Shown piece after piece: positions 8,342 through 58,100 of a stretch of DNA of 64,000 bases. Source of the DNA: Candidatus Omnitrophota bacterium (GTDB taxonomy: Bacteria; Omnitrophota; Gorgyraeia; Zapsychrales; JANLHA01); contig JACKFJ010000002.1 of assembly GCA_020632535.1 (NCBI GenBank), forward strand, positions 120,245 through 184,244. The letters run 5' to 3'. Position numbers and translations under genes: made by a program. The first letter of the stretch is position 1. Every line of letters begins with the position of its first letter. The notes beneath the pieces were generated by a model that searched no databases, was not told the origin of the DNA, and saw only the letters and a list, made by a program, of their open reading frames with translations.

Positions 8342-8365
8342 AGCATAACTACTAAAAGGAAATTT

Positions 8366-10153
8366 ATGTCGCGCGTTCATATTCTTTCTTCTGATGTTAT
8401 CAGTAAAATCGCCGCCGGCGAAGTCATTGAACGTCCAGCTTCCGTCATCAAAGAACTCGTCGAAAACAGCCTCGACGCCGGCAGCAATCTTATCGAACTA
8501 CACCTCAAAGATGCCGGCAAAAGTCTCATTCATCTAAAAGACAGCGGATACGGCATCGACCACGATGATCTCGAAACAGTTTTTGAGCGCCATTCAACAA
8601 GCAAAATCAAAACTGCCGACGACCTCTTCGACATTCACTCGCTCGGATTTCGTGGCGAAGCACTTTACAGCATCGCAGCCGTTTCAGATATCACATTGCG
8701 CAGTAAGACCAAAAAGCAAGATTCCGGCTGGGAAATTCATATGCGCGGTGGTAAAAAAGTAAATCTCAAACCCGCGGCAACACACAATGGAACAGAGATC
8801 GAAATCAAAGAACTTTTCTTTAACACTCCCGCCCGCCGAAAATTCTTAAAAAGCAACACCACTGAACTTAATCAAATTCTAAGCACCCTGATTCCCTACT
8901 GTCTTTTTTATCCGCAATGCCGTTTTCTTGTCACACACGAAAAACGAACTCTTTTAGATTTGGCACCGACCGAGAATCACATTCAGCGTGTGGCTGAAAC
9001 TCTTAATCTGGAAAACACGCATTTACTTGAACTCTCTGAAAACTTTAGCGAACAACGATTTTCTGCGCGTATGATTATTGGCGATATCAATATCAGCCGC
9101 TCACGCCGCGACATGCAATTTATTTTTATCAATGGCCGACCCGTACAAAGCAAAGCAATAAGCTTTCATCTTAATGATATTTATCGACTGATTCTGCCAC
9201 CCAACTCTTATCCATTTTTTACACTCTTTTTAACGATTCCCGCCGGACACGTGGATGTTAATATTCATCCCACCAAACGCGAAGTCAAAATCCATGACGA
9301 GCATAATCTTATGCCGCTTTTACGGCATATGGTTGAACAAACATTAATGACCAAAGGAAAACCCAAAGAAATCAAAGAAAAAGTCTCTTTGGATGAAAAA
9401 GCCATAGCTTTAAGACGGGCTTTAGAAAAAAGCACACCTCATGATTCGACATTTCCACAATCTTCTGAACGTGAAGTCCCGATCACTGGTATTTCCGAAA
9501 ACACATCAGTAACAGAACAATATACTTTTCCAAAACAAGATAACTTTATTCCGGACGGGTCTTCAAGTATTCAAAATGCCGGACAAAACCTCATCAATAA
9601 ATTTTCGCGCAGCCGTTATTTGGGCGCGTTTATCAATAAATTCTTGCTTTTTGAGGCGGATCGTTCACTTTTGATCGTCGATCAACACGCGGCGCAGGAA
9701 AGAATTGTTTTTGAAGCTTTAATTAGACAAATGGAACGCGGAAAAGTAGAAGTACAAAATCTTTTAACACCTGATCTTTTGAAAGTTTCTATGACGGAAA
9801 TGCTCGCATGGGAAGAAAGCAAAGAGACTCTTGAAAAATTAGGTTTAACATCAACACAATTTGATAAAGACACCATCGCGATACACAGCTGTCCGGCACT
9901 TCTGAGTGATCCAATGCGAGCAGTACGGGAACTTTTAACAGGTGGGAATATTTCACGCGCAGACCACGCGACTTTAGCACGTCGGGCGTGTCGCGCGTCC
10001 ATCCGTGCCGGCGATCCACTTAAGGCAAGCCAAGCTGAATTTCAAAAAGATCAACTTCTTAAATGTCGTGACCCTTTCACATGCCCGCATGGCCGACCAA
10101 CAGTCATCGAAATCAAGGAAAACTTTCTCGACCGACAATTCTTCCGAACTTAA
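8366..10153 (+). CDS. mutL: DNA mismatch repair protein MutL (endonuclease-type; DQHA(X)2E(X)4E and CPHGRP motifs present)
   Basis: The ORF track gives 8327..10153. The preferred start is ATG 8366 (MSRVHIL...) with RBS AAAGGA at 8355-8360. GHKL ATPase N-terminus (ISKIAAGEVIERPASVIKELVENSLDAGSNLIELHLKDAG). C-terminal endonuclease motifs LIVDQHAAQERIVFEAL, ACRASIRAGD and CPHGRPT. Confidence 0.93.
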   Translation: MSRVHILSSDVISKIAAGEVIERPASVIKELVENSLDAGSNLIELHLKDAGKSLIHLKDSGYGIDHDDLETVFERHSTSKIKTADDLFDIHSLGFRGEALYSIAAVSDITLRSKTKKQDSGWEIHMRGGKKVNLKPAATHNGTEIEIKELFFNTPARRKFLKSNTTELNQILSTLIPYCLFYPQCRFLVTHEKRTLLDLAPTENHIQRVAETLNLENTHLLELSENFSEQRFSARMIIGDINISRSRRDMQFIFINGRPVQSKAISFHLNDIYRLILPPNSYPFFTLFLTIPAGHVDVNIHPTKREVKIHDEHNLMPLLRHMVEQTLMTKGKPKEIKEKVSLDEKAIALRRALEKSTPHDSTFPQSSEREVPITGISENTSVTEQYTFPKQDNFIPDGSSSIQNAGQNLINKFSRSRYLGAFINKFLLFEADRSLLIVDQHAAQERIVFEALIRQMERGKVEVQNLLTPDLLKVSMTEMLAWEESKETLEKLGLTSTQFDKDTIAIHSCPALLSDPMRAVRELLTGGNISRADHATLARRACRASIRAGDPLKASQAEFQKDQLLKCRDPFTCPHGRPTVIEIKENFLDRQFFRT

Positions 10154-10155
10154 TA

Positions 10156-37100: not shown

Positions 37101-40100
37101 CATAAACTTCTTTCATGGCAACACTATCCTCATATCTCATGACCCACGGCGAAGCATCCAATTTACCACCATGAATCAATTGCTTGGCTTCATTCACAAC
37201 GGCCGCGATAGCAAAACCTGCACGCGGCAAGGCATGTTCTTTAATCGGGCTAGAACTTTGATTCTGACTCATATCATCATCCTGACCCATTTGTTTTTGT
37301 ACCGCTTCAATTGTGTTATTTAACTGCCACTTTGTCTCAACTTGTTGCGGCGAAACTAATGAATAAAAACCACTCCCATTCCATCGTTTTTGCTTATATG
37401 TGCTTTGTAAAATATGATTCAATACCGGTCGCGCGTCGCGACCATTAGAACCCATAAGTCCAATCACCTTAACAAGCCGTTCTTGCGCCTGATAGGAATG
37501 TTCATTCTGTAATTCAGCAATAATAAGAGATAAAGCAATCGAGCCGTTGAGAGCAAGAGCACGGCTTAACCAAGCGCGTTCAATTTCGGAAGATTCCGCA
37601 CGAAGGAAGAATGCTAACACTGCTTTTTGTACATCCTCATTACCTGATGCTAAAACTTTAGAAACATTGCGCAAGAGATCTTCTTGCCACAAAATATCTT
37701 GTGTTTCTTTTAATGTGTTAACTGAATAATTAGTATCTTGAATCTCGCTCCTAATTGAATCTATTTCCTTCATGAATTGAATTTGTTCTCTGACTTCAAT
37801 AATTCTGCTGTAATGTTGTAAAGTTTTTAGCAAAAATTCTGTCTGGTTCTGTAGCGCAACACTCTCTAGAGATTTAGCCCCTAATATACTCGCGATAATT
37901 GCAAAAAGTTCTTGTCCCGGATGCAAGTAAGATTCACTAACACTTGTAGACGCGACAGTGTCAATACTCAGATTCTTATTTGCGGCAAAAATGCCAGTAG
38001 CGTTTGGTTTTATTTCTGGCGCAGGTTGTGGATGAGGCTGTTGATCAAACTGTGGCTTAGGCTGCTTTGGTTGTGGAACAGGTTGATTCTCCAGCTTTTC
38101 GAGTTCATTTTCAAAATGCTTAATCCAGAGAGGAAGATCTTTCTTAATTTGAGGATATTTCACGGCAAGTCCTACACTATTTAAAATAGTACCCAAAACA
38201 CGCAATGTTTCAATAACTATAATCTGGAGCCTTTGATTTTGTTCCTGAGTTTCAAATTGAAGCTGCGCGCTAAAATAATCATAAAAGAACTGCTCAAGCG
38301 CGAAAACTATGTCTGCCATCAAATGCGCGTCACTTCTCACGGCTTCACTATGAATGAAAATAACGCCACGCGGCTGACCAAGAAATCCATCTGAAACATA
38401 CAATGAATGATTCAACACCGAAGGATGCTCAAGCGGCAAATTAAATAATAGTCGCAAGTTATTGCGTATAGCAACTTGAAATCTTGAACTCAACACAATC
38501 TCACGTTCAACAGGGTTAAGATTTACAACGATAATTTGAAATAATTTGACAAGTCTTCTTGGATCAACAACAACTGTTTTATTTTCATCGATCGTGGAAT
38601 CTTTCGCGGCAAAACCAATAATAGCACCAAGAAAATCTCGTCGCGTAATCGCGCTGGAAGCGACAGGATATTGTGCAATAGCAGAATTCGCGTCAATTGT
38701 AATTTTGCTGACTTCAACCTGACCCGAGACAAATACCTGATAACGCAAAGGCTCTGTCTTTGTTGCATCGCGCCAAAAGACAAGAACCCGATCTCCGTCG
38801 ACTTGAATATTAATTTTATTGGACAAAGTAACAGCACTAGGTTCATCCCAACGATGATTTCTTAAAACCGCAGCCGGCCTAATAAGGCGCACCGTACTAT
38901 CCACTTTATTAATTTCAAATTCGGCGGACCACAATCCATCTTCTTCCCAAATACGAATATCAAACGCTCCATGCCGCAACCAATCAAATTGTGTAAACAA
39001 ACCACTTTGCTGGTCATTCTTGTATCTGGAATCGATGCTATATACTGCATTTGGAGCAATATATTTATAAACCATCCGCATCAAACCATAATTTCTTGTA
39101 TTGTGTATTTCAACCATCGAAAATGAATTTTGCCGTGCAAAATTAACTAAATATGCAAATATCGTACGACCCATGCCCTGTAAATTATAACTATAAGAAG
39201 TCGCACTAAAAGCAATATAAAGTACGTCAATTTGATCTTCTACAAGACTCAACACCAGATTGCTGTCTGTAATCACGTTCCCATTAAGCCAGAGGCCAAA
39301 ACTTACTTCCTGTGAATCATCCTTTTTATAAACAGCATCCAGATTCTGTTTAAGAGTAAATGGCTGGCCATTAACAATGTTAACCAATTTAATTTTTTGC
39401 GGTAGAATGTCTTCGTGCCAATTTCGCTGAATCGGAGATGAAGCACGAGTCTTACCTTGTTTGTCTTCAACCACCTTAATCATGATACGTTCAAAATTTG
39501 AACGAATTAATCCACGAGCCGCAATTTTATTAGCATTAATATCACCCTCGTAAGAAATATACGAAACACCGACTCTCTCAGCTAACCCCTTGAGTAACCA
39601 TTGCGCTACGACCAACCGACCCGTCGACTTCCAAGTTTCACCCCCCAATAGACGCTCAACCCGGCCTAAAATCATTTCATGAGATGGAAAAGCCGTAGCA
39701 TAATTTACTGCCTGCCCCCAGATTGAAATTCCACTGCCAAAAAGCATATAAAAATTTGTATTAGTTTCTCCCTCATGATTAAACCAGACGTCAAAGGTGC
39801 GAACGCCATAAACTCCAAATTCATTTAATTTTTCGCTTAAAAATTGACCCTCAGAAGTCTGTTCAAGATTAAGTTCAACTGAACTCATTAAAGGATTCTT
39901 TGTAATTACAAAAATATCGATATCTTCGCCATAAGGCATTTGCGTCTCAGCTGGATAACTTGACCAAAATTCAACTAAACTGCCACCAATCGTGATATTT
40001 TGAATTTCAATATCTTGGAAATGCCGCTGCAAAATAATTGGTAAATATTCTTGTAAAATGATAAGAACGTGTAGCAAATGATTTCTTTTAATCTCATGAA

Positions 40101-43100
40101 CTGACTGCCAAACATAATGACCAGTTTTTAAATGTCTTACCAAATCTTCAGAAGATAAAATTTTCTCATCTGATAATTGTGCTGTCATCAAATTTATGGC
40201 TTGATAAATATCTGGCACCATTATCATTTTTGCTTCTTCAAAAGTAATAGAAAAACCCTTACCCGCAGCCGCGCTGGAAGCGACAGGATATTGTGAAATC
40301 GCTGTCGGCACATAAATCACGATTTCCTGAACATTATCCTCCGAAAGATAAACCTGATAATTAAGGGGCTTTTTACCACGAGGATTACGCCAATCCACAA
40401 GAAGAACGTCACCCTTAATCTGAATAATAATGCGTTTTAAAAGACGATCCGCAATCGAATTTGTCTCCCAACGATTATTGGCGTAGATTGCACTCGGCCG
40501 AGCAAGCACCACCTGATTATCTTCTTTATTAATATAAAAATTACCAGACCATACTCCATGCACGTCGTCAATAATACGAACATCAAGAATTCCTTGTCGC
40601 AACCAATCCTTCTCGGCAAATAAATATTGACGAACTTGGGATTTACGCTGCCTTACATGATATTTAGCATCCGGAGCAATATGCTTATAAACCATATGCA
40701 TCAATCCATAATTTTTTGTATTGTATATCGAAAGGTGTAAAACTCCGTGCTGACGGGCAAAATCAACAAGATAGGCAAGTATGGTACGACCCATGCCTTG
40801 CAAGTTATGCTGATAGGATACTCTTCCAAGATAAATCTCCGTCACGGCAATGAGCTCTGGCTTAAGCTGTATGACCAAGAGGCTTCCCATAATCTCTTTC
40901 CCATTTACGACAATACGATAATGGACCTCCTGTAAATTTTCCCGACTAAATAAATCAAATTGCTTCAGTGTAAATAGCTTTTGATTTGCGACATTGGTCA
41001 GAACAATTTCGTGTGGCAAAATAGATTCATGCCAGCTTCTTGGAACTAGTGCGGAAGAGGCAGTTATGATTGAAGATGAGCTTCTCGCCAAGTTGGCAAT
41101 CGCAGGAAGAATAATATAATGCCCACCTTTGCCCATATCGCCTAATATCAAAGCCTTCTCTGTAAAATACCCGTCAGAATAACTTTTGACTCTGGTCGCG
41201 CCTGTAGCATTTTTTACAACACGATAAAGATGAATATCACTTTCTGATCCCACCGCATAATAAACACCCACTAATTTAAGATAGACATTTAATCCTTGTT
41301 GGCCAAATACCAAAAGATCTCTCTTTGCTACTTCCGCCTTAACCGCTTGATATCGCTGCGCATCCTGCCACTGGCCAATATTAAAGACCATCAAGTCATG
41401 CCACTTTAATTTCATGAGAAAAACGCGAGCCTGAGCGTGAGTAATATTAAATATCTCGGACAATTGTGTGATGCTATAAAATGGAATAACTTTTGCGGTT
41501 GTCTTGCCGGCTGTCTGCGCAACTTTTGAAATCCTGTTAAAATGTGCGAACGGTTCTTGAATATAAAAGCGCCCATCTCGTCTTAATTCTGTTATCTTTT
41601 TAACTAAGCGTTCACGAGAAGCAAGCGGAAGCTCAACCATCAGTTGACCCAAACGCAATTCAGTGGCAATAGCCGCTAAATATGGTTCGGCAACCTGTTC
41701 AACCATAACATGAAGATCATTGTCAAGAATTGTGCGCATCCATTCACGAAATTCATAAAATTCTTGAACTAAAACCGCAAATTCTTCAATTTGATTCGCC
41801 GCGAGCAATTCGAGCACCTGCTTGCCATAAATAATTCTTTGCTCAAGATCAATTAATTTGTCTTCAACATAAGCCAACAAATGCTGCACTTGTTGCTGCG
41901 TCATAGCATCGGTCAACGCGCTGGAAGCAGTCTTTCTTCCCATCAAACTATGTAATTCGCGAGGAAGCAATTTACCAAACGCGGCATCTCCGGGAAGAAC
42001 AATTTTCACACTCGGCAAGAAAGGTTGTTGTCTACCTTGAAAGATTGCGGTAATCTTTAAAATTTCTTCAACCGTTGGCGTTTGAATAACTTCAATCTTG
42101 TAACTTTCGCCTATATCATTACGAAACTCAAATGGCATGAAGCCTCTTCTAAACGGCATACGGCTTTCAACATACTTTTGCAATGGTAAATACTGAGGCG
42201 CTGTTACTTCACCGCGTCCGCCACTATTTTCCACATTGACAGCTTCGCGAATCGCCTGAACAAAAATCTGCAAAGCCTGTTGATCAGCATACAATTGACG
42301 CGTGACATTATCTTCTAATTCAATTTCAATCGAAGCAAATATGCCAACAATGTCCCTTTCACTAAGTCCGCTTATAACAGCGCCATATGTTAATGCATAA
42401 GCAATTTCCATTTGTGTTGCAACAAACAAATAATTTGATTGTTCCGATGCTTTAGGATCAAAATCAATCACATGCTTGCCATCAAACAAGCCAGCAAAGC
42501 GAGCATTAGTGTGCCCCATAAAATTATTCAAATCTCTAACCGGACTATAATCATCGGTCAAATCTGATAATTTTGCCTGAAAGACACGATTATCCCATCC
42601 GCTATTCGCATGCATCAAAAGCGTAATTGCAGAATGAATTTTATTTTGTGCCAAAAGGCCGTAGTACTGAGTCTGTATGAGAAGCAATGCCGACTTATAT
42701 TTGCGAACCATTTCATCTTGGCTCATCATTCCCTGCAAATTATCAGTCAGATAAGCGAAGACTTCGATATCTGTTTCATATCTGACCTCGCCGGTCTGTT
42801 CATTAGCCTGCACATTGGTTATGCGCCCAAAAGAATACTTTGCAATGGCTTTGATTCCTGAATATTCGGCATCAAATCCGTCACGGCCCGTAATTCCCCT
42901 GCTAGATCGATCAAAATATTTACTAATAACAAATCGTGGACGATACGTCGCATCCGCATTGGTTGGCTTAGGTAATAAATGAACAAACTTATACGTTCCA
43001 AATTGAAAATCCATAGATTGTAGGAACAAATCAATTCCATTTTGTAACGACGATTCAGTAAAGAATTGATTCACGAAAGCGTCAATCAATCTTTTCGCGT

Positions 43101-46100
43101 TTACTTCCGATTGATGCGCTCCAACATATGCCGCCAAACGTATCGCCATATTAAAGGCCATCCCTTGACCACGTAACCGTTGTCTCACATCAATAAGCCA
43201 TATATAAGGCATTGCTAAATTACGCGCTTTTTGAGCATATGCCGGATTTTCCATATTAGACAAAAGCAAATTTAAGGCCTTTTCCAAAACAACATGTGAA
43301 CCAAGTTCAACAGAATTCAAAGGCGATATTTGTGTTATCCTAAAATTGCTCAAATTAATATATTCTGGTCGTGTCTCGGCAATCATTCTCCGCACACCTA
43401 ATTCTGAATTGTCTAAAACCATAATCTTAGAAACTAAGTCAAGAATTTCATCAGAAACATCGTAATTATTGCGCTTCTTAATCCTTTGCAAAACAAGTTT
43501 AACAATAAAGCGTGGATCTTTTTTGTTTAAGATATATGTTAAAAGTCCTATGACTAAACTTTCGGCGTCTGCTTGATAATTCACAAGAGCACTTTCTAAA
43601 GAAAGGTATTCATAAGGGTTGCTTACGTTGTAGGGTATCCCGTGTATCTTGTCCGCCGGTTTATAATGTTGCTGTGTGTACATATATTCTTCCCACAAAT
43701 CTTTGATTTCAGAATCATTAGCTTTTAATCGCATTAAAGCAATCTTTGCGTGACCGACAACATAATTGTAACTAGCAAGAAGAATGCCTAATTTAGGACC
43801 AAATCTTCCTTCGTGAAGCATATAAATAATCGTCAGCGCGACATTGATGCCCACAAGCAAAGCCCCCAAAACAACCACATATGCTGCTCCATTACTAATA
43901 CTAATAAGCAAAATAGGTAGGACAATAAAAACAGATGCACTATATGCAACTCGCACCCAAGAAAACACCGATGTCAATGTTGCTGAAAAGACCGCTTTGC
44001 TTCTTAATGTGTTTTGAATCACTCCTTGACCAAATTGATCGCGGTAAATTCGCTTGATTGAATTAATATCAATTTTAATTATTTTTCCCTCATCTGTCTG
44101 AATCATAACCCCGCTGGAGGCGGATGAATTTTCTTTATTTTGTAAATCAAGCGCGTCTTGAACACGCCAAAGGGCTGCGCTCAACCGGAGATTAAACCAC
44201 TTTCTTTGTAATAAAGTTTGCTCTGGATTTTCTTGAGCATATTGCTTAATTAATTCTGCGGATTGATGCTTAATGGCAAAACCATTTTCTTCAATAACTT
44301 TTGCTATTAAAATCGCCGCGGCATAGCTAATCTTTGAATAATTACGATGCGCGACAAAACTATCATTACTAAGAACCAAGCCGCGAACGGCAACGTCAAT
44401 AATACTTTGATAATATTCCGGTGAACCGACTTTTATACCCAAGATTTGCCATGCACGCTCAATCGAATTCTCTTGCGTCGCGAATATTAATGCATTCTCA
44501 ACCGCGAGCATAATTAATGCTTGCTTTATACTTCTTGTCTGTTGCAACTGATCTCTAGAGATGCTGGTTTCTGGTCGATAATTTAGATTAATTATTTTAT
44601 AGTCAATTTCGCCTACAATATCTAAATTGACTGCAAAGCGAGTATCTTCCGAGTGAATAAAAACAATAACATCGATATCATGCGGTGTCGTTCCTGCCGC
44701 CACAGAACCCAAGGCACTGCCAAACAAATATGCCGATTCAATGCCTTTTAAGCGATACCCTTTTGCTTTTGAGGTGATATTTGTATTAATGATGCCTGCC
44801 AGATCAGCCAAAGATATGCGGCGACCAGAAGGTGTATTGATTTCCTCAATGTGTTTAAGCGCGCTAGAAGCAAATGACGAATCAAGAACTTTAAGTTGTT
44901 GATAGAGTGATTCTTCAGCTGCCTCAAAAACTTCCCTTGCCGAAAGATATCCATAAACTTCCACCACAAAAGTCGGATCGATACGCTTAACAGTTCTAAC
45001 AGCCTCGACAACCGACATGTTCTCAACCGCTGAAATTTTTTCCCATGTTCGGTTAACAGAGTAGAAAAGCGCCCAGAGAAAATATATTTTCACACCTTGG
45101 TTTTCTTTAGATAAAACATTAACAAAGCTTAAATCATACGGAATAATCTTTGTTTCGAGATAGTCATGGATCACTCCACCGACTTGACGTCCACCTTCGA
45201 TTTCTCTTCCAAAAATATGACGACTTACAAAAGCAGTATCTCTTGATAAAACATTGCTGATCATATTATGGATGACGTCGCTAACCTTAACCACGACTCC
45301 CGTTTGTCCAAGCTCAATTAAACCAGCTTTATACGCCAACAAATTGCTTTGGCGGCTTGCTTCAGCCAGTGTAGATAATCGCGTCTTGATAGCACGCGGG
45401 AATACTGGCAAATTAAAATCATTTTCAACACGAACCCAGAATAAATCACGATCTTTAATTCTTGTCAGAACTTGGACATACTGCATAACCAAATCGATAT
45501 CCAAAGGCATACCAATGCTACTTCTTAAATCCACCAATTGACGACGCAACTCTGCCGTAACAGCACGACGCATGCGTTTTGTAATGTGCAACTTAGAAGA
45601 ATAGTCAAGGCGCAGTTGATGCATATCTTGATAAGCCAAAAATCCAGATTTTAAATATAAAAAGTATAAAATCGAATCTTCTCGAACATCATGCAAGAAT
45701 GCAGCTGCAATAATTTCAGGATTCTTAATACCAAACCAATTACCAACAATCAAAACAACCCCAAGAATATGTACCAAATAATCGGACTTCACTTCATCCT
45801 TGCGAATTTGACCAATATGATGAATTCGAGCAATATTAAATAAACCCTGTATAAATTTAACTTGCTGATTTGAATCTAAGCCAATCAAAGAACCTTGTAA
45901 CCCAAATAAATCATACGGACCAACCGGGAATTCACCTTCCACATTGGCCATCAATTCTTGAATTTGTTCCTCAAATGTCATACCGGCAGATAATGCAAAT
46001 TCTTTATTTTGTCGTTCAGCGATATGGACAAATGAATCTAAAGCGGATCGTTTTTCTTGCATAATTGAGTAGATTTTATATAAAACCGCACCCGCAATTA

Positions 46101-49100
46101 CGAACAAGAAAATACCAATGTCAATCAGCCCAGCATATGTTAATAATCCAACAGCTACCAAACCCAAAAGCTGCGCAACACGAACAACTCGCGGCATAAG
46201 CACAAACACAAGCATTGAGCCGGCAACAAAACGCTTACCAAGTGATACCTTTTGATCACTAAAGACACTGTATAACGCTTTTACTTTCCACGAGCGACTG
46301 TCATCTTTGATGGACGAGGAAGCAGACAAAACCTGTGTTTGATTTACCAACATCGTTTCTTTAACAATTGCAGAAGAGCTTTCATCTTCACCTGCGTCAA
46401 CTACTGTTTCGATTGGTTGCATCGTTTTCTGAAGTACTTCCCAGAAATGTTGAATTTCTTTTATCATCGTGATACTGTTTCCCTCCATAGCACGTCTCAT
46501 CCCTATGGCGGCTAACATAAGCTCTGTTTGCTCTTCGGATGTAGCGGGAATCGTGTAATAAATCAAGCGCTTCATGTTGCCCTGATCATCCCATGTGAAT
46601 ATCCCCTCAAGATCTTGGAAAACATTTTGATGCCAAAGTTTCCATTTTGCAAAATGCTGATGAGCTAGAAGCTGTGAAAAAACATCTTTCCAACTCGGCC
46701 ATCGATAAGGGTCAAGCGGATTTTGATCAATACCTAATTTAACTGCAAAATCTTGAGTAGCTGCTAACTTCAAAATCTTTTCCAAATCACTTTCTTCTTC
46801 CTTCTTGTTTTTAATTTTATGAACATGGACCATCCCAATACGATTATCTTCAAAAGAAGTTCCATCTTTATTAACACCGCGAACAATATATTGGTTGCGC
46901 TGCAACACTTCGCGATACACATCAGCGGAAACTATGGTTTGCCCCGGCAAAAAGAGCGCGCTAATTTCAAGAGGTAAGGCTTTATAAGACATGTTTACTT
47001 CCACACCTTTTTCATCAACAATAAAATCGTCTCCTGTGCTAAAGAGACCGCCAACATCGCCAGAATTCTTTACCAAATCCCGGATAATTTCTTCCGTAAT
47101 CACTTCTTGTCCAGCGGTGAAATTTGCAACAATCTTTTGACGATCGCGCAAATAAGGAATAATGCCAAACAATCCCAGACCATGCCATGAGGAGATATCA
47201 TTAATCGGCACACTGTAAGTGCGATAAGAGATAATATTGTCCCCTTCAGGTAATTCGCGTAATTTGAATGTGATATAAATCGCCCCATTATCATAAAATC
47301 TTAAGGTTGCCTCAGCTAATCCACTGAAAACACCGGGGAAGCTTCTGCTGTCTGCCGCATTAAATCCTATCCAGTGCTTTGGAATTGCGATTCGATCAAA
47401 TGACGCGTTTTCCGACTGTGGTTGGCTGGCATACATTATTGCTAACGGTTCCAAGATCGTTCTTTCTTCCTGCTGCATCACTCCAGCATAAAGAACTGGA
47501 TTAATATCATCTTCATCCCACTGCGCGTTTTCTTTAAGAGCTTTGATTTCTAAATATCTCTTATGGATATCTTCAGCTTTTTTATAGTTCTCATTGGCAC
47601 TGCCACGACTGTCGAGTTTATTGTGACTTTCCCAAATAGCGGAAGCAATGCGCAATAGCAACATGTTGTGATTACTCCCATAGTATTCATCCCATTCTTC
47701 AACGTCGTGATATGTGATTTGTCCAAATCGATTCATATGTCTTAGAAGCCAAGTAAAAACATCACCGATTTGTTCTGTTTCATAAATTTCAACAAGATTT
47801 GTGCTTTCAATCGGCGTTGGCTTAACGGATTCTTCGAGGGAACTCGAGGCAGTAGAATTCTTCTTTGCCGCAGCTTGAGCGGCATTATAAACACGATCGT
47901 ACGCAGTAATCTTCTCATCACTCCAGCCGCCTGGAAATTCCATGGCTTTTCGAACTTCAGAAATCCACCATTCTGTGTCATTAAGATAACGGTCGAATGC
48001 TAAAGCAAAAGCTCCTGCTAATTCACGAGCGGTATTCTGCATACTTTCTTTAGAGTTATAATTAAATGGTGAAACTCCAAATTCTTCCGGTGTTCCCCCT
48101 AATTTCACAAAGTCATATAAGCCACCCGTCTTGGTTAAAATTGTGACCAATCCAATAAGTGCGGCTTGAATATTAGAAATTCCACCCGGCTCCCATGCTG
48201 ACGGCATAAAGAACACATCCATACCAGAGCGAATTTGATTAGCCAAAGCTTTGTCAAAAAGTTCAACAAGCATCACTTGGCCGAAGTATTTCTCACTTCT
48301 TGCCAATTGACGCAATTGTTTAGCAGTATTCTCGCCATCCGTGTCACCCGGAGACGCCATGAAAACCAAACGAATCTTTTCGCCATTTTCGCCACGCATA
48401 GCCAAAATACTTTCGATCAATGTCGTACCTTGTCCATCAACAGTTTCAAAAAGAATCGAGTATCCTTTTTGCATAACTAATCGAGAAACCGCGACAACGA
48501 ACATATCTTTTTCCATACCTTCTTGATTCAATGAACCAAAGATTTTTTCTTTATTCTTAGGATCATGACTTAAAGCTTCGAGCAACGCTAAAGTCGCGCG
48601 GAGATTTTGAAATCTCTTTTCAACCAAATCCGCATCTTGAGAGGTAAATCGCGTGAAGCTCAAATCCCCAACAGTCACATCTAAATCCTGCATATAGTCT
48701 GGTCTGTTCGTGTCTAAGTTAATACCATTTGGTACATACGTTAACGCGCCCTGTTTAAATCGATCAGCCATCAAGCCATGTAAACCAACACCTAAGTTTT
48801 CTGTCATAACTTCATGCATATAACCTTCGCTTACCGAAACAATCTGCTTCGCAAATCCTAAACCACCCTTAAGTAAATTATGACGTCCCCAGAATTCTAA
48901 ACCTTCATGACTCTTTAATAATGCAGAAGGAATATTGCTTAACGTCTGTCCACGTCTATTTTCAGTAACGAGATCGACATAAGCCAAATTGTTGCGATAA
49001 CGAATCTGATCAACCGTCAATATTCCAAAATTTAATAAACGAACCAACAACGGATCATTCGTTGTCACTGATTCTTGATTAGCAAATACACCTTGATACG

Positions 49101-52100
49101 ATAAATTGTGAGTAATGATAACGGTACCGGTCTCACCTAAGAACAAATTAAATTGTCCATCATGGCGATAAAGTTTTTCCATATAAACAGGTCCAAAACC
49201 GGTTTGCCAATCATTAAAGTGCAAGATGTCAACCTTAATCCCTAAAGCAACCGCAATATAAAATGGTGCCTTTGCTAATAAAATGGCTTCAATATATCCA
49301 TAAAGACTGTCGGTATATCGGCTACGAACAACTTGCGAGTACCGATTCGCATCAAGATCTTTTTCCGCCGGATACAATGATGGTTGAAGCAATGTCTGTA
49401 AAATCTTATCGGTCGGATAAAAGCGTAAATATCGAACACCGTTGACATCATTTTGTGTCACATTCATTGTCAACTGACCACTTCCCATCGGAACGGTAAT
49501 CGACGTTAGGACAATCCCTTGTGGCATCACAGGTTTTACGACCGGTGAATATTCAGCCTGATAACCCGGATTAATGACAAAGACCATATATCCAGCTTTT
49601 TCGAGAGCTTCAGCATATTCACGAATATAATCACCTTGACCACCCTTCATCGAAACACCCTCAGCAGCGACTAAAAACACAACTTTCTTACCGGCCGCCC
49701 GAACAGCGACAACCTGATTTTGTATATCCTCAATCAAAATCTTTGACTGTTCATCATGGCCTAATTGACGAACATAAACATGACCATTACCATATGGCAG
49801 TTCTGCCCAAACTTGACGATTTCCAAATCCTTCAAAAGCCACTGTAAATTCAAAATCATCACGAGCTTCAACACGAATCGCATAAACCGCGCGACCATTT
49901 TCAGTGTTTCTAACCCAGTTCATCGGTTCATCTCGCCATTGACCTGTACGATTCGAACGCAAAATCACATGACGTTGTTCACCCATACCACGCGCGGCTT
50001 TATCATCAGTCGCGTAAGCGACTCCCTCAATATTAACCTGTTGACCTGCAGCAACGTGATGAACGCGTTCGGCCAAAAACCCACCATTTTGAACCATTTT
50101 CTTGAAATTAAATTCCGAATAAGATTCTTCCTGAATGCGGATATTAGCCAAAGCCCAATCTTGAGCATGCTGACCCGTCGAACTCATACTTTCAACATGT
50201 CTAATATTTACAGTGCTATCAAAAATATTTTTGGATAAATTAAATCGATGATCCCATTCATCCACAGCGCACATACCGGCAACACTAACACTATTATTCA
50301 AAACAAATTGTTTAATCGCTTCTAAATCCCAATCTTGAACTTTCTGCGCGACTGGTTTATGCACAAATCGACTTTGATAATGAATTGTTTGAACGCGAAC
50401 ATTTAAGTCATTTAAAACATCCATCATTTCATTTAATATTTCAGCAAATGTCCGCACCTGCATCGCGTTGCGATAAACGTAGGCACCCACCAACGTACCG
50501 TCAGCCATAAACCCGCGCAACGCGAGAAATTCACTATCATTGTTATTTGCACTCATTCGTAACATATATACGTCCGCCTGAGTTTGTTCTACCATAACGA
50601 TCACCCATCCCGCTTTAATGACAAAACTATTAGCTGGATATTGAGCTTGCATGGAGTAGTTGTTATCCCAAACATATTGTTTTGTGAAAGCATCCTTGTA
50701 ATAATCCGGACGGGCAGATTGAACTGCAGGGATATACGTATACTTCTCTTCTGAATCAATTACACGATAAGAAGCGATTTGACCAATTTCGAGTTCATCT
50801 AAAGCCGTCATGGTTTCAAACCATTGATTGACCTGAAGAACATAGTTTAAGGATGCGTTCGGAAGACGGCTGACAAGACGGCTATGAACAGCGGCGCTTT
50901 GTCCAACATGAAGAAGATGATCGATTTCGTCGGTAATAATTAATTTGAGGGATTCATAAAGGTGCGGTAAATATGCTGCGCTTTCTTGTTCTTCAATGAA
51001 TTCTGGTGGCGCGCGTAAAGCACGATACGAAAGGTAAATCTCGCCATGACGAACATAAGCGATTTCGCCAGCGTCACCGTGTAAAATCAACTTGATAATT
51101 TTGTGAGTCGATTCGCCAAACCAGACCAATTTATCATTTTGTGTTTGCTGAACAAAAGCATAATTGATAGCATCCGCAAATTCTTTCGCAGGAAAATCTT
51201 TCAAATCAGCCGGCAACTTACCCAACTTACTCATGGTCACTTTACCAGTGCTCGGATAAATGCGAACCTTAACATTTAGTTCAACACGCGGCAATCCACG
51301 AAGCGCGGCAACATAAAGCGGGAAGCCATCTTGATTAATCGCGCTGGAGGCGGCATTGCTATGACCAGAACCAACAGACTTAATTTGTGTAGCGTAATTA
51401 TCTAATTGCTTACGGAAAGAATCCACATCCATCGCATTAACGCCGATCGCAGCAATGACATTTGCAGAATGTTGTAGAACTTCTTTAACCGTTCCTTCAA
51501 AAATACCGCCGGCAACAATAATCGGCAATTGGGCATTAGCTTGTCTGACCGCTGTGAGGAAGTTTTCTGCAGCATCCGCAGAACTTTTCTTTAATTGACC
51601 AAACGGCTTAAATAACACGACATCGACGTCTTTGGCCACAGTATTGGCAACTTCACTTTGAACCATTGTCATATCAAGCGGCAAGTTCAACGTCAATTCA
51701 GAGATAATCACGACATTCGCATTATTGCGGCGAATATTAGCAACGATTTCTTTAGTCCAGTTAGAACCGATAAGAATGTTAGCACCTTTGCGATTAGCTT
51801 CTAAGGCGCTGACTTCATCATTGACGAAGAACGCGACGATTGCCGTTGCATAATTTACATCTTGACGTAATGATTCCAAAACATCCATACGATCTAACGA
51901 AGGAATAATTTGACGATCAAGAAGTTCTTTTGCAAAATTCACAAGAAGCGTGGAATCAAGTGCCGCATAACCTTTACCGCCGGTAGTTGTGTGTAACCCA
52001 GCTTCAGCGCGGAAAGATTGTAATACTTCAATCACCTGTTGACGATTATAAACACTAGAAGATACACGATTCTTGACTTGCTCGACACGCTGATCATTTT

Positions 52101-55100
52101 CCAAAGCCCATTTGACAGTTTCAAGTTCATCACCATTGTTGACCGCAGAGCTGGCAGATGTCGAATTTTTGGTTTGAATATATAACGGTTCATAGCTGCC
52201 ACGTTTTAGAAGCACCGACGTTTCATGCACTTGTTCCACATCGCCCCACATATCATGATCTTGTGTGCTATAAACAACAACATTAACTGTCTCAACGATA
52301 CGATCAACTCTGATCATGTCCGGTGTATATGAACCTTGTTGCAAGTTTTGAACATAAGCAATCTCACGCTGCATAATCGCGCCAATTTCATACTTAGAAA
52401 CAGACTGTAAAGCTTTTTGAAGTTCTTCAGCGCGGATCAAATGAATACCTTTTTCCTCTAAGATTTTACGATATTCGACGGCGTATGGTCGAAAGACCGA
52501 TTCAGTCGTTTCGTAATATAATGGGTCTTTGCTCGCCATCTCACGTTCACGTGCTGCATCTCTCCTCGCACGGATGTACATGATAAATCCAGCAACCACA
52601 CCAATAGCAACAAGCACAATTAAAACCATTTGACCGATTGTTAAATAAGCCGCGATAGCGGTGATTGCAGAAGATGATTTGATATCGGTCAAATTCTTAA
52701 CTTTGCTATCCGTACTTGCGCTAGAAGAATTTTCTTCACCCTTCTTATTTAAGGCTTTGATCTTTTCTTCTTCCTTTTTGATCTTTTCTGCGGCAACCCA
52801 CTGATTAATTTGTTCCATTTCCTTTTCTGCAGATTTTGAATCTTTTCCAAATGCGGCAAAGAAGAGAAGGCCGGCAATAAGTACAGGAGATAAAATACTC
52901 AAAAAGATCAACACTGAAACATTTAAAATCGTCGCTAAAAATACTGCTGGCAAAATCCATGCGGCAATAATACCGCCTGTTACAGCCAAAGTGTATTTCG
53001 TATTCTTAACATAACCATTTTCATTTGGACGATTAACACGAGTCTTAGCACCCAAATAAGCGATCTTAATAAAGATGCGGCTGCCCCAAACGCGTTCTTC
53101 AACCAATGTGCTATACAAGAAATCACGGAACCCTGTCAATGTCCATTTATTCACAGTCAAAACATTAGTAGCCCCGCTAGTAACCAAGGCAAAAATTGCA
53201 ACGACCATCAAAACGAAATTGATCAACTGCACTAAAGGATTGTTCCAATTGACAATACCAGTCACCACCATAAAGATGATTGAAGCAAAGAAGACTAAAA
53301 GACCTTTCCACCAACCAAACATAGCAAACAAATCCATACCCTTTAAGTGACGACGGGATTCGCCATTTATCGTCCCTGCTTTAATGCCAAACAGACGAGC
53401 GAGACCATCAAGCTTAAAGAATGCTAACCAACCATTAAATTTCGAAACAAACGTATTATATGCAAATGTACCCGTCAAGAATGACGTTGACGCAAGCATA
53501 TAGACTAAGGTAATTGCTGGACCAAACGGTGTCGTACTTAATAAAGCAAAGAACCAGCCGAGTTGACCAAGCATACCGACAAAGCCGTCGAATGGAAATG
53601 CTTTCTTAAACTTTGACAACATGATAAAGCCGAAGAGCATCACAATCGGAGCAATAATTAATAATGCTGTCGAAATCCAAAGCGAAGCAAATATATGCAA
53701 AATAACAGCGAATATTTCTAAGCCCACCCCAATTCCAAAAACAACTTTACCTGCATTCTCAGTACGATTAACATTCAAACTCAACACCTTGGTATTTTCA
53801 TAACGGGTCTCAACACTCCATTTACTTAAGTTTGGCTCTTTGGCGGTACGAATAAAGCTAAAACTTTCATTCGATGCATAAAAGACACCCTTAACGAAAC
53901 TGGCAATAAGATTGACATAGAATGGGAAGCCGGCCATCGTTTCAATCAGAGCCATCCAAATCGCCTTCAAGAAGCTACCCGTCAATCGTAATTGACGTAA
54001 GAAGTTATGCAAATTGATCGCTTGCATCAAGAATGTACTGACGCCGGCGAATAAGAGAATCGGCGTTAAAAACGCGAAAGAACTAAATGTCGCGCCAACC
54101 GGCAAGAAGATCAAGAGTAAGACAGCATTAATCGCAGTAAAGTAATGAGCAAAGAACCCTAAGTGAGCAAGCTTCACATCGTAACCAATATCTTTATTAG
54201 TGAAGACTTCAAATTGCCCACGATCCATCATAAAGCGAGTAACGTTAAAAGCGTAACGGGTTTCAGTAGCGTACAAGGATTCAGCCAAGAGTGAAGGACG
54301 GCCCCATTCAAACGTAAGCCAATCTACCTGTGTCGAAAGAACATTCGGATAAGAACGCTGCATAACTAAGAACGCGCCAGAGTCTTCACCCGGAGGTGTT
54401 AATAATGTATCGCCAGCCGCCGGTGTGATCAAAGCCTTACCGTAGAACGTTGTCATACCACGACGTGCTCTTTGAACATCAGACGTAAACGTTTCTTGAG
54501 AAACTTTGTATAAACGGGTAACAGGGAAAGCCCAATTGCTAGATGCCCAAATGCGCATGTTCGGGTTAACAACAACAATTTCCGGATTGCGGCCAACTAA
54601 AGAAGCCCATGATGTTGTATAAATGTTTTGCCCCGGATACACACGCACATGTGCGTCTAAGTTCATGCTACGTCCGTATGTTGCCCAGAGATTGATAACA
54701 ATATTACTGTTCTTCACACCCAAAACTGGATTATCTTTCGAGCGATCGTAGAACGGTAAGTAGATATCGTTCTTGATCGTTTCACGAATAACATATGTCA
54801 CGTGCATGGCTTGTTGCCAAGCGGCGATCCAAGCCGTCGGAAGCGTGCCAGTATTACGAGTACGAATGAAATCAACAATATTTTCACGACGGAACTGATC
54901 AAAAGTATCCGCAAGCGTAACCAAATCTTTAGCGCTAATCGTTTTTCCTTCACCACTCCAGAGTCCTTGTTCTTTTAAGAACGCAAGAAGGTTGGCAACT
55001 AAAGGAACTTGTGATTCGGCAAAGAAACCGGCAAATGGTCCTTCTTCTAATTTATATTGTCCATCATTTGTTTTACCCATCAATTGACCCCAGAGTAAAC

Positions 55101-58100
55101 CTTCACTGAATATGCCACGAACTTTTTCATTGGCTAATGCGCGATACATTTCATATCCTTGCATAAAGACTTCGCGAACGGCGACATCACGAACTTGTAC
55201 GGCACCTTCCGCATAAGCAGCGGTCAATGTCCGATACTTAGCTAAAACGTCATTTAATGCTCTAGCGTATTCGAAATCCGCATTTTCGTTAGCAAGATAA
55301 ATATGCATTTCATTGATGTTCTTAGCTTGACTACGGGCAACAGAAATGTTAGCCGGACGAACTTCATTCATCAATTCTTCAAGAGCCGTGATGACCATCA
55401 TAATTTCTTCCTGTGACAACCCTTGCTCAAATAAACGAATCAATTTTTGATTCATATTAGAAAATTCATCAGAGCCCTTGAATTCCTTGATAATCAATTG
55501 CAATTTGTCAGCGGATATTCTGCCGGCCAAAAGATTGATTTGATTATTGAATTCTTCCTTAAAACTACGAATCAAATAACCCAAGAGCGTGGTGTTGCTG
55601 ATATGACGCAAATCTTCACGATTCTTAATCAAATAATCTCTATCGCTTTTATTTAAATCCTTTATACCTGCGACAATTTCAACAACATCCAAATCTGTTT
55701 GTTTAGTTCCTTCGATAGATTGATAAGCAGCGGCAACGCGAGCAGCAGCAATAATGAATGCTTTTTCTTCAAGGCTTAAATTGACAGCCTTATTTACTAA
55801 AGCATTAAGATCTTCAACGCGGACTATCGATTCCACAATGGTAGTAATATCAGCTTGCTTCTTCTTATACTCAGCCAAAGTAATTCTCATGTTTTTCTTA
55901 TTACGAGCCAAAATCATACCCATCACAAGATTGATGAGTTTAAACTTATCTGGAATATCAAATGAACCGGATTGCATATCATTTTCAAAAATATGCGCGA
56001 AAAGTTCACCGTATGCGGCAACGTGACTGGATGTCGGCTGTAAATGTTCCACAACATCGGTGGCCGGTTTCATCTGGCTTAATGAGAAGAATTGCTGATA
56101 AAAGACTTCATAACCTTTTTCGGTATCAGGAAGCATAAACGTAAAGGCATTCGGATTAAGAATGACTTTGACATTCGCATCATAAACTTGCTTGCTGATA
56201 CGGCCTTCTTCTTTTTCGATTAAAAGCATGCGTAAGAAATAGTTCTCGATGGTTTCACCATTAGGCGTGATCGCGCCATAGCGGGCTTCGATTTCGAGAA
56301 ATTCTTGATACCATTTCGTATAGAATGCGCCATTCTTAATACCATTCATATCTCTATTTAATGCCTTCAATAACCAGATCGAACGGGCCGTTTTGCTCCA
56401 TGTCGTAGTATTCAAAAGCAAGTAACTCTTCACAACAGTAAATATATGCATAAAAGTAATTAAGGTCGGAACAAACATAAGCACGAATAATCCAGCTGTG
56501 ATCGCAAACCCTAATGTGCCAAAATGGATAACAGCAAATTTCCAGAAGACAAAATGGGTAATCCAACCTAAGTACAATGTTGTTGCAGTAAATGTTGCAA
56601 CCCATAACCATTTTTCAGATGAGAAACGAACCTTACCAGCCAAAAGCGTAGGTAATCCAGCCAAGAACATCATAAAGATATACCCTAAAGCCGCATAACG
56701 GGTAGCAACAATAATATATCCGCCGCCCAAAATACCAACCAAAGCTAAAGCGATCACTAACATACGCAAAGCTTTTGAATGAATGGCCCAGAAGTTTTCC
56801 AAGCTTCTAAATTTGCCCGGAATCTTCATGACAAAGCGAGCAATCAAAGCACCGAAGAACATCGGACCCAAGATACGGATACCAAACAGATGAATAATGC
56901 CGCGCTTATTATTTGTCATTTCATCTGCTTTAGCTGCATATGGAGACTTTTCTGCGCTTAACTTCATCGTTTCTTGTTTAAGCAAGCTTGTAAACGGGAT
57001 CACTGTTTTTCTAGCGTGATCCAAAATGTCAGAATATCCCAACTTTGTTTTTAAGAAAGCACCGTACAGCTCTTTATGCTTGGCAAGAATTTCTTCTAAA
57101 CGAACTGTAATCGCTTCGAATTTCTTTTCATTGGAAGCTTTATTGTCGGCACCAAATTCATGATCAAACATCGCAGTAATGACACCATTAAATTGAACCA
57201 AACCTTGCTCACCCTTGTTTGCCAAACGGTCAAAAAGATCATGCACGTCAGTATCAACAAGGATCTCATACAAATGAAATTCAGCTTGGGCTTGTTCGAG
57301 CGGCGGCTGTGTAACTAATTTCCATAAACCAGCACCAAAATGAAGCGGCGCATACCAATTATTCAAATGGAATAAAGCCTTCCAAAAACGAGCATAAGTG
57401 TGAATATGCTCCATAACAAAAGCGGCGTCCTTACCTATAGAAAGATTTTTAGCCGCTTCGCGAACAATAAACAGCGTTAATGGATAGTTGAATGTTGTCC
57501 CACCCAATGAATATTCATTGGTTTCGCTCGGAGGAGATTGTAACAATTTCACAAAGATATGTTCAAAAACCGTTGTTGCTTCAACATTCGGAGTTGTCGG
57601 ATACGGATTATACTTTGCGGTTAAAACTTCGCCAGCTTTAGCGATGCGAGACGGATACAAGGTGAAGAATCTCTTTAATTCGCCAACAACGCTAACAAAG
57701 AGCTCATTGATAAATGCAGCATTTTTAATTGTGCTCTTTGAATAAGCATTAAATGTCTTATTAAGAACCTCATCAAAAAGTGTTCTGGCGATGCGAGTCT
57801 TAACACTTTCGACAAAGAGTCTCATGCTCGCTCTTTGGCCGTGACGTGCAACATACGCCTGAGCTTGACCAGCAAACACAGCATCGGTTTCATCACCAAA
57901 GTATTGTGTATCAATTAAATGCGCCAAAACACGGACAGCTGGTGTTGGCAAGAGCGTGTTTAAATCTTCGCGGATATCTTGACCTGCCGCCAATGCCTGA
58001 AGCGTACGATTTTCGACTTCGATAACAAGTGCTTTCAATAACTGTGCCCAACGCAAACTGTCATTATTAATATTGATCTGCAAACGACCATTAATACTTT

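Follow-up and report, generated by a model that had tools for sequence, protein, structure and literature searches.

The giant reading frame and its host

The window, which is the whole 64-kb stretch of DNA that was analysed, carries a giant minus-strand reading frame with mutS, mutL and genes for a TPR protein and a DUF6580 protein as its neighbours (Table 1). The frame is still open at the right edge of the window, so the encoded protein is at least 17,932 aa long, and from composition alone the probability of this many codons passing without a stop by chance is about 1e-547. A 'Candidatus Omnitrophica bacterium' MAG encodes a protein with 100% identity to the neighbouring MutS, and the named relatives all belong to Omnitrophota; judged on these matches, the host is a member of Omnitrophota.

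In the Pfam scan the giant protein is a patchwork of enzymatic and regulatory modules, with about 10 distinct families tiled along it in one to three copies each and none dominating. These include GT5/GT1, HTH_XRE (three copies), LOG/SLOG, a full AceK, alpha/beta-hydrolase and TPR, with weak matches to RelA_SpoT, ACT and Pol-beta NTase. No Pfam match was found in the first 4,700 aa (E <= 0.01), and at the same threshold the whole protein gave no match to SecA_DEAD, HEAT, dockerin, C39 or S8, although divergent copies could escape such a scan.

Table 1. Features of the giant reading frame around the GT5 module; nucleotide positions are those of the window and aa positions those of the giant protein.
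Feature	Position (nt)	Strand	aa	Basis or remark
Giant ORF carrying the GT5 module	10156..63954	minus		one reading frame, 17,932 codons
Nearest upstream hydrophobic helix	52573..52629	minus	3776-3794	0 K/R in the preceding 15 aa, 6 K/R in the following 15 aa
Upstream punctuation motif ASSAI	51337..51351	minus	4202-4206	opens the 1,167-aa unit holding the GT5 module
All-beta extension (~100 aa)	49750..50052	minus	4635-4735	conserved; directly N-terminal of the GT5 core
GT5 module core, a GT-B glycosyltransferase with two Rossmann-like halves	47920..49692	minus	4755-5345	Pfam, profile vs PDB, AF2, Foldseek
N-terminal half, PF08323 Glyco_transf_5	48769..49677	minus	4760-5062	Pfam
Glycine loop M4769-K-G-G-Q-G-D-Y4776	49627..49650	minus	4769-4776	alignment; counterpart of K15-X-G-G-L
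C-terminal half, PF00534 Glycos_transf_1	48094..48513	minus	5148-5287	Pfam; has R5158, K5163, E5255 and the TGGL motif
Downstream punctuation motif ASSSL	47836..47850	minus	5369-5373	lies 5 aa beyond the GT5 profile match
Nearest downstream hydrophobic cluster	46081..46230	minus	5909-5958	K/R on the upstream flank

The GT5 module, its catalytic centre and its lineage

The initial annotation had placed a complete GlgA-like domain at 48,055 to 49,690 inside a giant protein, and the module does lie in this single frame. The interval covers the core, and profile alignment extends the module past the core to about aa 5364 (nt ~47,863). The embedded module is complete, with both GT-B halves present: PF08323 scored 105.7 bits, well over its gathering score of 22.7 and thus over the GT5 threshold that had been at issue (98.9 bits when scanned within a 4,700-aa chunk), and PF00534 scored 34.3 bits against 26.4. 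Two lineage-specific insertions interrupt the N-terminal half, at about aa 4853-4883 (~30 aa) and aa 4955-5026 (~70 aa). The all-beta extension also adjoins GT5 in three relatives (L052, P0187 and P0188), and one idea is that it has a putative glucan-binding role. Six of the seven motifs quoted earlier were found verbatim and in the order given, namely KGGQGDY (aa 4770), HFNDW (4912), NGINLDTNRPD (5076), VSRLVMQKG (5156), FMPSAWEPGG (5249) and TGGLYDFV (5276), while the seventh, 'TIHNLSYQG', was mis-transcribed and actually reads ITHNLSYQG (aa 4947-4955).

The module was aligned to E. coli glycogen synthase, whose residue numbering is used here. Its catalytic plausibility was borne out, as equivalents of E9 (E4765), G17, G18, D21, Y95, D137 (D4915), H161 (H4949), N162 (N4950), R300 (R5158), K305 (K5163) and E377 (E5255) are all present. 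D137, H161, R300, K305 and E377 were invariant in 30 of 30 sequences spanning embedded, free-standing and canonical enzymes; since the catalytic residues do not vary in the embedded copies, the alignment indicates purifying selection on catalysis there. An orthologue with 63% identity (L052) keeps every catalytic residue and has the loop S-K-K-G-G-Q. The Asn of HFNDW was considered as a lost catalytic His and this was ruled out, because it falls at the non-catalytic His136 position and the catalytic His161 is kept as the H of ITHNLSYQG. At the position of the adenine-stacking Tyr355 the module has Phe.

The glycine loop departs from the family pattern. KGGQGDY had been taken as a GT5 hallmark, yet it is not a true K-X-G-G-L: the module's S-M-K-G-G-Q has Met in place of Lys15, Lys at the X position and Gln in place of Leu. 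In PMC2576272, strict conservation of Lys15 of this motif is described for all starch and glycogen synthases. Among the embedded copies the position is occupied by K, Q, A or M, and GGQ is found throughout the lineage; donor binding may differ.

The predicted fold agrees with the expected likeness to GlgA and starch synthase structures. The AF2 model of the module (pTM 0.76) has two Rossmann-like halves, with both insertions at pLDDT <50, and its top 16 Foldseek matches were all glycogen or starch synthases, the best being starch synthase IV (6gne, TM 0.79), with E. coli glycogen synthase (2qzs) at TM 0.74. The lineage profile matched E. coli glycogen synthase in the PDB at 4.9e-103.

We found that the label 'GlgA-like' is correct and that 'GlgA' proper is not. 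The best-scoring named families for the module are all GlgA, but none of the NCBIfam GlgA cut-offs is reached: TIGR02095 gave 172.6 bits (E 1e-50) against a cut-off of 328.45, and the best NCBIfam GlgA equivalog (NF0018xx/NF0106xx) gave 135.9 bits against 459. On TIGR02095, canonical GlgA controls scored 528-559 and members of the module's own group 174-211, and the clade of the module is separate from canonical GlgA. By sequence, the module is a member of a distinct 'GGQ' GT5 lineage. This lineage is rare (19 cluster representatives at E <= 1e-30 among 1.84 billion) and occurs in two settings, within long proteins and as free-standing proteins of about 615 aa. The free-standing 'putative starch synthase' proteins (for example P0005 of an uncultured Desulfobacterium sp., P0142 and P0143) align with 97-99% of the module at 38-43% identity and share both insertions and the HFNDW, F355 and GGQ signatures; they differ in being separate genes, whose products measure 607-623 aa, and in having K-K ahead of GG in most cases. 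The genomic context of the Desulfobacterium gene offers no functional clue, with no glycogen genes among its neighbours, and glgC, glgB and glgP are likewise missing from the 64-kb window. In another relative (P0144), a GT5 of the GGQ type is fused to a GH77 4-alpha-glucanotransferase (251 bits), which supports a link to alpha-glucan metabolism.

Membrane placement and module borders

Using hydropathy alone rather than a dedicated predictor (19-residue Kyte-Doolittle window >= 1.7), we counted 28 peaks in six clusters along the giant protein. The module does sit between membrane-spanning clusters, as first described, with aa 2353-2499 and 3278-3794 upstream and aa 5909-5958 and 6669 downstream, but the nearest helices are about 960 aa upstream and about 560 aa downstream. 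We infer that the module lies in a cytoplasmic loop of about 2,100 aa, because the flanking helices show a positive-inside charge pattern and the modules that share the chain are of kinds found in the cytoplasm (AceK, HTH, LOG, RelA/SpoT), with the topology call based on crude hydropathy and charge counts. For proteins of this kind, most domains were predicted to be extracellular by West-Roberts et al. (bioRxiv 10.1101/2023.11.21.568195), who deemed such predictions unreliable.

The borders of the modules are marked by a short motif. [AS]SS[AS][ILV] was observed 21 times in the giant protein against 0.36 expected, and of 13 independent borders, 11 have a copy within 30 aa, a result matched by 0 of 20,000 random placements. 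The motif is specific to the protein: the form above is shared by the window's protein and the orthologue L052, which has ASSAL at the same place as ASSSL, while RTSP is found in P0140, [STG]SSP in L046, P0146, P0151 and P0153, and R[AS]E[VL]R in P0154. In P0140, P0154, P0151 and L046 the relatives' own motifs bracket GT5 modules of 583-630 aa, a size that, set beside the 607-623 aa of the free-standing relatives, speaks for the autonomy of the module. The motif also coincides with breakpoints of module shuffling.

Such border-marking punctuation motifs appear not to have been described previously, and they are candidate processing sites. At E <= 0.01, no peptidase family was found by Pfam in the giant protein or its neighbours; the protein has one alpha/beta-hydrolase module. 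We tentatively raise the wider possibility that the giant ORF encodes a bacterial polyprotein, in which the protein-specific motifs would be processing sites releasing or hinging enzyme-sized modules, including the GT5 unit of about 600-1,170 aa, and would also be the joints of module shuffling between related giant genes. If the motifs are processing sites, giant genes would resemble operons, with several proteins strung together and translated into a single chain, the 'cleavage points' missing from the giant-gene literature would be supplied, and giant proteins could be split computationally into the units they naturally consist of before their structures are predicted and annotated. Whether they act as a single chain or as many could then be tested directly by proteomics.

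Proposed function and comparison with known systems

We consider it probable that this is an autonomous, enzyme-sized GT5 module of a giant, multi-enzyme, membrane-anchored Omnitrophota protein and that it works as an alpha-glucan synthase, a role that its sequence makes plausible; we infer its donor, acceptor, cytoplasmic location and activity. As a retaining GT-B enzyme from CAZy family GT5 and the 'GGQ' lineage, it would hold NDP-glucose in the C-terminal Rossmann half (a phosphate clamp of R5158 and K5163, the Phe at the Tyr355 position, E5255 and TGGL) and the end of an alpha-glucan acceptor in the N-terminal half (E4765, the Y95 equivalent, D4915 and H4949/N4950). The M-K-G-G-Q loop would close the cleft, and alpha-1,4-linked glucose would be added to the growing glucan. 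The cytoplasmic loop would be where nucleotide sugars are available to the module, and since its borders are marked by the punctuation motif, it would be active while still anchored in the membrane or once cleavage has released it. In line with a role in alpha-glucan metabolism, the literature on long Omnitrophota proteins reports phosphoglucomutase and ROK kinase domains together with PF08323.

The alternative that survives best, although we regard it as unlikely, is a GT5-derived transferase with another job, such as synthesis of a polymer other than glycogen (alpha-1,3-glucan, or a glucan of the envelope or capsule) or glycosylation of proteins or lipids, possibly tied to a predatory or epibiotic lifestyle. 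The altered glycine loop with its variable Lys15, the two insertions in the acceptor-side half, the lack of glycogen-pathway neighbours in both the window and the Desulfobacterium relative, and the membrane anchoring suggested by hydropathy are consistent with it, and glycosylation of extracellular proteins is named as an option in the giant-protein literature. Against it, the window's copy retains E9, Y95, D137, H161 and N162, with which glycogen synthases engage the acceptor, and the GH77 to which a relative is fused is an alpha-1,4-glucan enzyme. We know of no characterised GT5 enzyme whose product is anything but an alpha-glucan.

An ordinary ADP-glucose glycogen synthase, that is, a GlgA orthologue fused into a giant gene for housekeeping glycogen storage, is improbable. 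The best named families and the intact catalytic set point towards it, as does the suggestion of West-Roberts et al. that degradation products are converted to glycogen, but the TIGR02095 shortfall against both cut-off and controls, the separate clade, the altered K-X-G-G-L and the two large insertions argue against it, and the rarity of the lineage is unlike that of a housekeeping enzyme. A catalytically dead relic serving as a glucan-binding or scaffolding domain would suit the Met at Lys15 and the high divergence common among giant-protein domains, but it is very improbable given that all other catalytic residues are intact and invariant across the 30 sequences, that the L052 orthologue keeps them all, including Lys at position 15, and that the window's copy still has a Lys one position along.

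Among solved structures, the best match in both sequence and fold to the alpha-glucan synthase proposed here is the catalytic domain of Arabidopsis starch synthase IV (6gne; phmmer 6.4e-19, Foldseek 1.6e-27, TM as above); identity is 19%, starch synthase IV is a plastid enzyme with a coiled-coil N-terminus, and the relatedness is seen at the GT5 family level only. GlgA (E. coli 2qzs/3guh; A. tumefaciens 1rzu) shares the GT-B fold (TM 0.69-0.76), the motif order and E9, D137, H161, R300, K305 and E377. The module differs from it in its ~21% identity, its sub-cut-off scores, its loop (K-T-G-G-L in GlgA), the Phe for Tyr355, the insertions and N-terminal extension, and its embedding in a giant polypeptide rather than a glg operon. 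The border motifs resemble the protease-specific cleavage motifs of viral polyproteins in being short, uniform within a polypeptide, different between polypeptides and placed at the borders of enzyme-sized modules; the host here is bacterial, no protease domain was found by Pfam in the giant protein (E <= 0.01), and the analogy extends to the motif only.

GT5 domains in Omnitrophota giant proteins ('Archaeovorins') have already been published (West-Roberts et al. 2023, bioRxiv 10.1101/2023.11.21.568195). In such proteins GT5 is reported as the most prevalent glycosyltransferase domain and ranks among their commonest domains, with PF08323 in 153 long proteins according to a 2026 preprint (bioRxiv 10.64898/2026.06.07.730766) that uses the term 'class 1 multi-enzyme metabolic clusters', and the present module is thus real and not new, one more case of the published pattern. 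The giant protein resembles these proteins in its Omnitrophota origin, its length (>10,000 aa), its many hydrophobic helices, its many tiled Pfam domains and its PF08323 with PF00534; it differs in that SecA_DEAD, HEAT, dockerin, C39 and S8 were undetected here (E <= 0.01), a divergent SecA_DEAD domain (in 'most' full-length giants) and HEAT repeats being traits of the Omnitrophota giants. Both papers state the cleavage points as unknown, and they report no residue-level audit, no GGQ lineage with free-standing members and no boundary motif. The present analysis adds that the embedded modules are not GlgA and belong to a rare GT5 lineage moving between free-standing and giant genes with its catalytic centre kept, and that module borders can be read from the sequence through a short protein-specific motif. 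The GGQ lineage is a defined target for biochemistry, which could address the kind of sugar polymer that these predatory or epibiotic nanobacteria build at the membrane.

The GT5 module and its catalytic residues

The core at residues 4755-5345 of the giant ORF was assigned by Pfam to Glyco_transf_5 (105.7 bits against a gathering score of 22.7), followed by Glycos_transf_1 (34.3 bits against 26.4), which is the full two-domain architecture of glycogen and starch synthases. A phmmer search of the PDB sequences returned Arabidopsis SS4 and the glycogen synthases (GS) of A. tumefaciens and E. coli, and a profile of the module and its relatives matched E. coli GS at 4.9e-103. The AlphaFold2 model, built from a 13-sequence alignment, reached a pTM of 0.76 with low confidence only in two lineage-specific insertions. 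The best Foldseek matches in the PDB were all glycogen or starch synthases, including 6gne (TM 0.79) and 2qzs (TM 0.74). Domain architecture, fold and catalytic residues therefore agree with the initial annotation, which had called the module complete and catalytically plausible. Six of the seven hallmark motifs that it quoted were found verbatim and in order (aa 4770-5283), while the remaining one, given as TIHNLSYQG, had been mis-transcribed and reads ITHNLSYQG.

The E. coli GS sequence was rebuilt from the HMMER alignment, and the resulting numbering recovers K15, D137, H161, R300, K305, Y355 and E377 of the literature. Equivalents of the catalytic set were present as E4765 (E9), D4915 (D137), H4949 (H161), R5158 (R300), K5163 (K305) and E5255 (E377). 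N162 corresponds to N4950; G17, G18, D21 and Y95 are retained as the same residues, and Y355 is replaced by F. An apparent loss of the catalytic His in HFNDW was considered and rejected, as the Asn occupies the non-catalytic His136 site and His161 is the H of ITHNLSYQG. Asn occurs naturally at the His136 position of further GT5 enzymes, among them the canonical-length relatives P0010, P0012 and P0018. It was noted that D137, H161, R300, K305 and E377 are invariant in 30 of 30 sequences compared, which argues that embedded copies of the 'GGQ' lineage, a separate GT5 group with GGQ in the glycine loop, are still selected for catalysis.

The glycine loop is the only departure of the module, reading S-M-K-G-G-Q versus K-X-G-G-L. 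The latter has been described as strictly conserved across starch and glycogen synthases, where Lys15 touches the substrate (PMC2576272). In the sub-clade of the module, the two positions before GG always hold at least one Lys (KK, QK or KE; MK in the window), and the loop of L052, an orthologous giant ORF from a metagenome, reads S-K-K-G-G-Q. This makes the Met a recent substitution that left the adjacent Lys in place.

The GGQ lineage and its relation to GlgA

The earlier designation as GlgA-like holds for the GT5 family, fold and catalytic set, but does not extend to GlgA proper. The module scored 172.6 bits with TIGR02095 against a cut-off of 328.45, and it fell below the cut-off of every GlgA equivalog. 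Free-standing GGQ members also failed TIGR02095 (174-211 bits), while canonical controls passed (528-559). An exploratory NJ tree placed every GGQ module in one clade separate from canonical GlgA, and the sub-clade holding the window's copy mixed embedded and free-standing forms. From this examination, the best description of the module is not GlgA but a predicted alpha-glucan-synthase-type GT5 module of the 'GGQ' lineage.

Among 1.84 billion cluster representatives, an exhaustive HMMER search recovered only 19 at E<=1e-30. Eleven of these exceed 1,000 aa and carry the GT5 module internally (longest 7,724 aa), and two are free-standing (607 and 623 aa). A further eight free-standing proteins (612-616 aa, 37-39% identical) came from a word-index search, including one named 'putative starch synthase' from an uncultured Desulfobacterium. 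Among the genome representatives, relatives in three Omnitrophota MAGs lie in frames open throughout the fetched locus for more than 7,000 codons, as does one on a contig labelled Elusimicrobiales for 3,056 codons. Around the free-standing Desulfobacterium relative (scaffold L001) no glycogen genes were found, which leaves this context uninformative. The same scaffold (L001:239-6089) carries ORFs of 1,944 and 1,943 aa on opposite strands that overlap almost completely, neither with a Pfam match. Within the window, the single profile match left no second GT5 copy or free-standing glgA, and glgC, glgB and glgP were likewise absent.

Architecture of the giant ORF and its punctuation motif

No in-frame stop occurs from the first ATG of the giant ORF to the window's right edge, a run with a chance of ~1e-547 given the window base composition. 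As the frame is open to that edge, the protein comprises at least 17,932 aa. Its true N-terminus may fall beyond the window; upstream of the start there is just a weak, distant GAAGGA. The stop codon (10156-10158) adjoins mutL, whose end is at 10153, and the neighbouring MutS has a counterpart with 100% identity in a MAG labelled 'Candidatus Omnitrophica bacterium', with named relatives that are all Omnitrophota.

Features of the giant ORF, its neighbours and its relatives (residues are those of the giant ORF unless a relative is named)
Feature	Window position	Residues	Strand	Remarks
Giant ORF	10156..63954		-	Single reading frame, 17,932 codons; contains the flagged interval 48055-49690
mutS and mutL	5571-10153		+	Directly downstream of the giant gene, convergent with it
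AceK (isocitrate dehydrogenase kinase/phosphatase), complete	16027-17751	15402-15976	-	Pfam
Regulator-type modules	~21600-34800	~9719-12973	-	RelA_SpoT and ACT_4 (weak), HTH_XRE-type x3, LOG/SLOG
268-aa unit before the GT5 unit	51349-52155	3934-4202	-	
~180-aa recurring module	50700-51336	~4207-4400	-	Directly after the motif at aa 4202
Range of [AS]SS[AS][ILV]	10156-52677	3760-17932		Every copy after aa 3760
Motif copies, examples	51337-51351, 47836-47850, 17791-17805, 15997-16011			
Block shared with L052		5368-5884		L052 400-908
Block shared with L052		4600-5378		L052 1160-1938
Block shared with L052		5979-6372		L052 1939-2320
Block shared with L052		9462-10329		L052 2305-3180
RTSP bracket of GT5 in P0140		P0140 1983 / 2607		624 aa; nine copies against 0.03 expected
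R[AS]E[VL]R bracket in P0154		P0154 5849 / 6432		583 aa
SSSP bracket in P0151		P0151 20 / 650		630 aa
[STG]SSP bracket in L046		L046 3227 / 3841		614 aa

Besides GT5/GT1, Pfam revealed a mosaic of three HTH_XRE domains (HTH_31, 68.7 bits), a LOG/SLOG module of the 'lysine decarboxylase-like' type (93.2 bits), AceK (200.6 bits for the regulatory and 235.7 for the kinase domain), an alpha/beta-hydrolase and TPR, with weak matches to RelA_SpoT, ACT and Pol-beta NTase. It is odd that a membrane-anchored giant protein carries DNA-binding domains. In residues 1-4700 (window 49855-63954, minus strand), Pfam detected nothing at E<=0.01; three clusters there comprise 12 hydrophobic helices. The GT5 module does sit between hydrophobic clusters, as had been proposed. 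A hydropathy peak within it, at aa 4888-4906, was rejected as a membrane helix, since soluble free-standing relatives share this stretch, the conserved 'YGYIEAxxLS' helix of the core.

The GT5-bearing unit spans 1,167 aa (aa 4202-5369) and consists of the ~180-aa recurring module, a conserved all-beta extension of ~100 aa and the GT5 core. The recurring module shares the features DKLxWF, HGxxGxIA, YRAxRAPP and [DE]ExxH and has no Pfam match; the relative P0147 holds three copies, two of them beginning right after that protein's own motif. For the extension (aa 4635-4735), a glucan-binding role was considered, and its profile gave only spurious matches to PDB sequences. Pfam returned one weak Alpha-amylase_N match (E 0.017) in one of five members, the word-index search found no homologue, and the single-sequence AF2 model was all-beta (pLDDT 48) with no Foldseek match below E 0.02. 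The preceding 268-aa unit matches modules of the GT5-bearing P0152, P0155 and P0156 at 28-33% identity, with sub-threshold Pfam hints only (TMP-TENI, B12-binding), and possibly works together with the GT5 module.

Aligning L052:1-11765 with window residues 4600-10329 revealed shared modules in altered order, with the GT5 block at 63% identity and the block breaks falling at punctuation motifs. This reordering indicates that modules are shuffled within giant genes.

We found 13 copies of ASSA in the giant ORF against 0.41 expected, and 21 copies of [AS]SS[AS][ILV] against 0.36 in shuffles; the first 3,759 residues contain none. The A and S codons differ freely among the 21 copies, so that conservation lies at the protein level and a DNA-level repeat or recombination signal was rejected. 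No copy falls within a Pfam-detected domain. AceK is flanked by copies at aa 15384 and 15982, and the GT5 profile match stops at aa 5364, next to a copy at 5369. Eleven of 13 borders set independently by Pfam or homology have a motif no more than 30 aa away, a count equalled by none of 20,000 random placements, with some borders having one motif in common and thus not being fully independent. Each relative carries its own motif bracketing the GT5 module at a span equal to the free-standing protein size. L052 shares the window's motif, with ASSAL at the exact site of the window's ASSSL in an otherwise diverged linker. The motifs are candidate processing or hinge sites. A protease domain was found neither in the giant ORF nor in its neighbours, and cleavage at the motifs is therefore put forward as a hypothesis. 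The border motif, which lies outside the original finding, is the part that merits follow-up.

Predicted function, location and published giant proteins

To our knowledge, the GT5 enzymes characterised so far all make alpha-glucans. Alpha-glucan synthesis by the module is plausible, backed by its conserved acceptor-side residues and by the context of two relatives. The P0144 chain joins a GH77 4-alpha-glucanotransferase (251 bits) and two HAD modules to a GGQ-type GT5. P0140, the closest relative, is encoded by a complete gene for 3,969 aa (L051:3137-15046) with CsrA, GT5 and transaldolase modules, adjoined by a sugar ABC transporter. It was also noted that a 129-aa unit of P0140 (aa 1654-1783), flanked by two RTSP motifs, has two CsrA matches (78.6 bits), so that a small RNA-binding regulator appears as a tandem pair within this polypeptide.

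The helix preceding the GT5 module (aa 3776-3794) has no K/R in its upstream flank and six in its downstream flank, and the next helix (aa 5909) has K/R on its upstream side. Because of this pattern and the positive-inside rule, we infer from these crude measures that the ~2,100-aa stretch with the GT5 module probably faces the cytoplasm. Such a placement is consistent with an enzyme that uses nucleotide sugars and with the cytoplasmic character of the other modules.

A search of the literature library combining Omnitrophota with 'polyprotein' found no paper. Of the two giant-gene preprints, one describes the cleavage points as unknown and neither mentions border motifs. In the 'Archaeovorin' giant proteins, the commonest glycosyltransferases are GT5 domains homologous to glycogen synthase (West-Roberts et al. 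2023, bioRxiv 10.1101/2023.11.21.568195). Among long Omnitrophota proteins, PF08323 occurs in 153 and PF00534 in 127, and a 'multi-enzyme metabolic cluster' class was defined (2026 preprint, bioRxiv 10.64898/2026.06.07.730766). Embedded GT5 in Omnitrophota giant proteins is thus already published, and the window's module adds one further case. The module mix of the giant ORF fits the 'multi-enzyme metabolic cluster' class; the phenomenon is therefore known, and the giant ORF is a further member.
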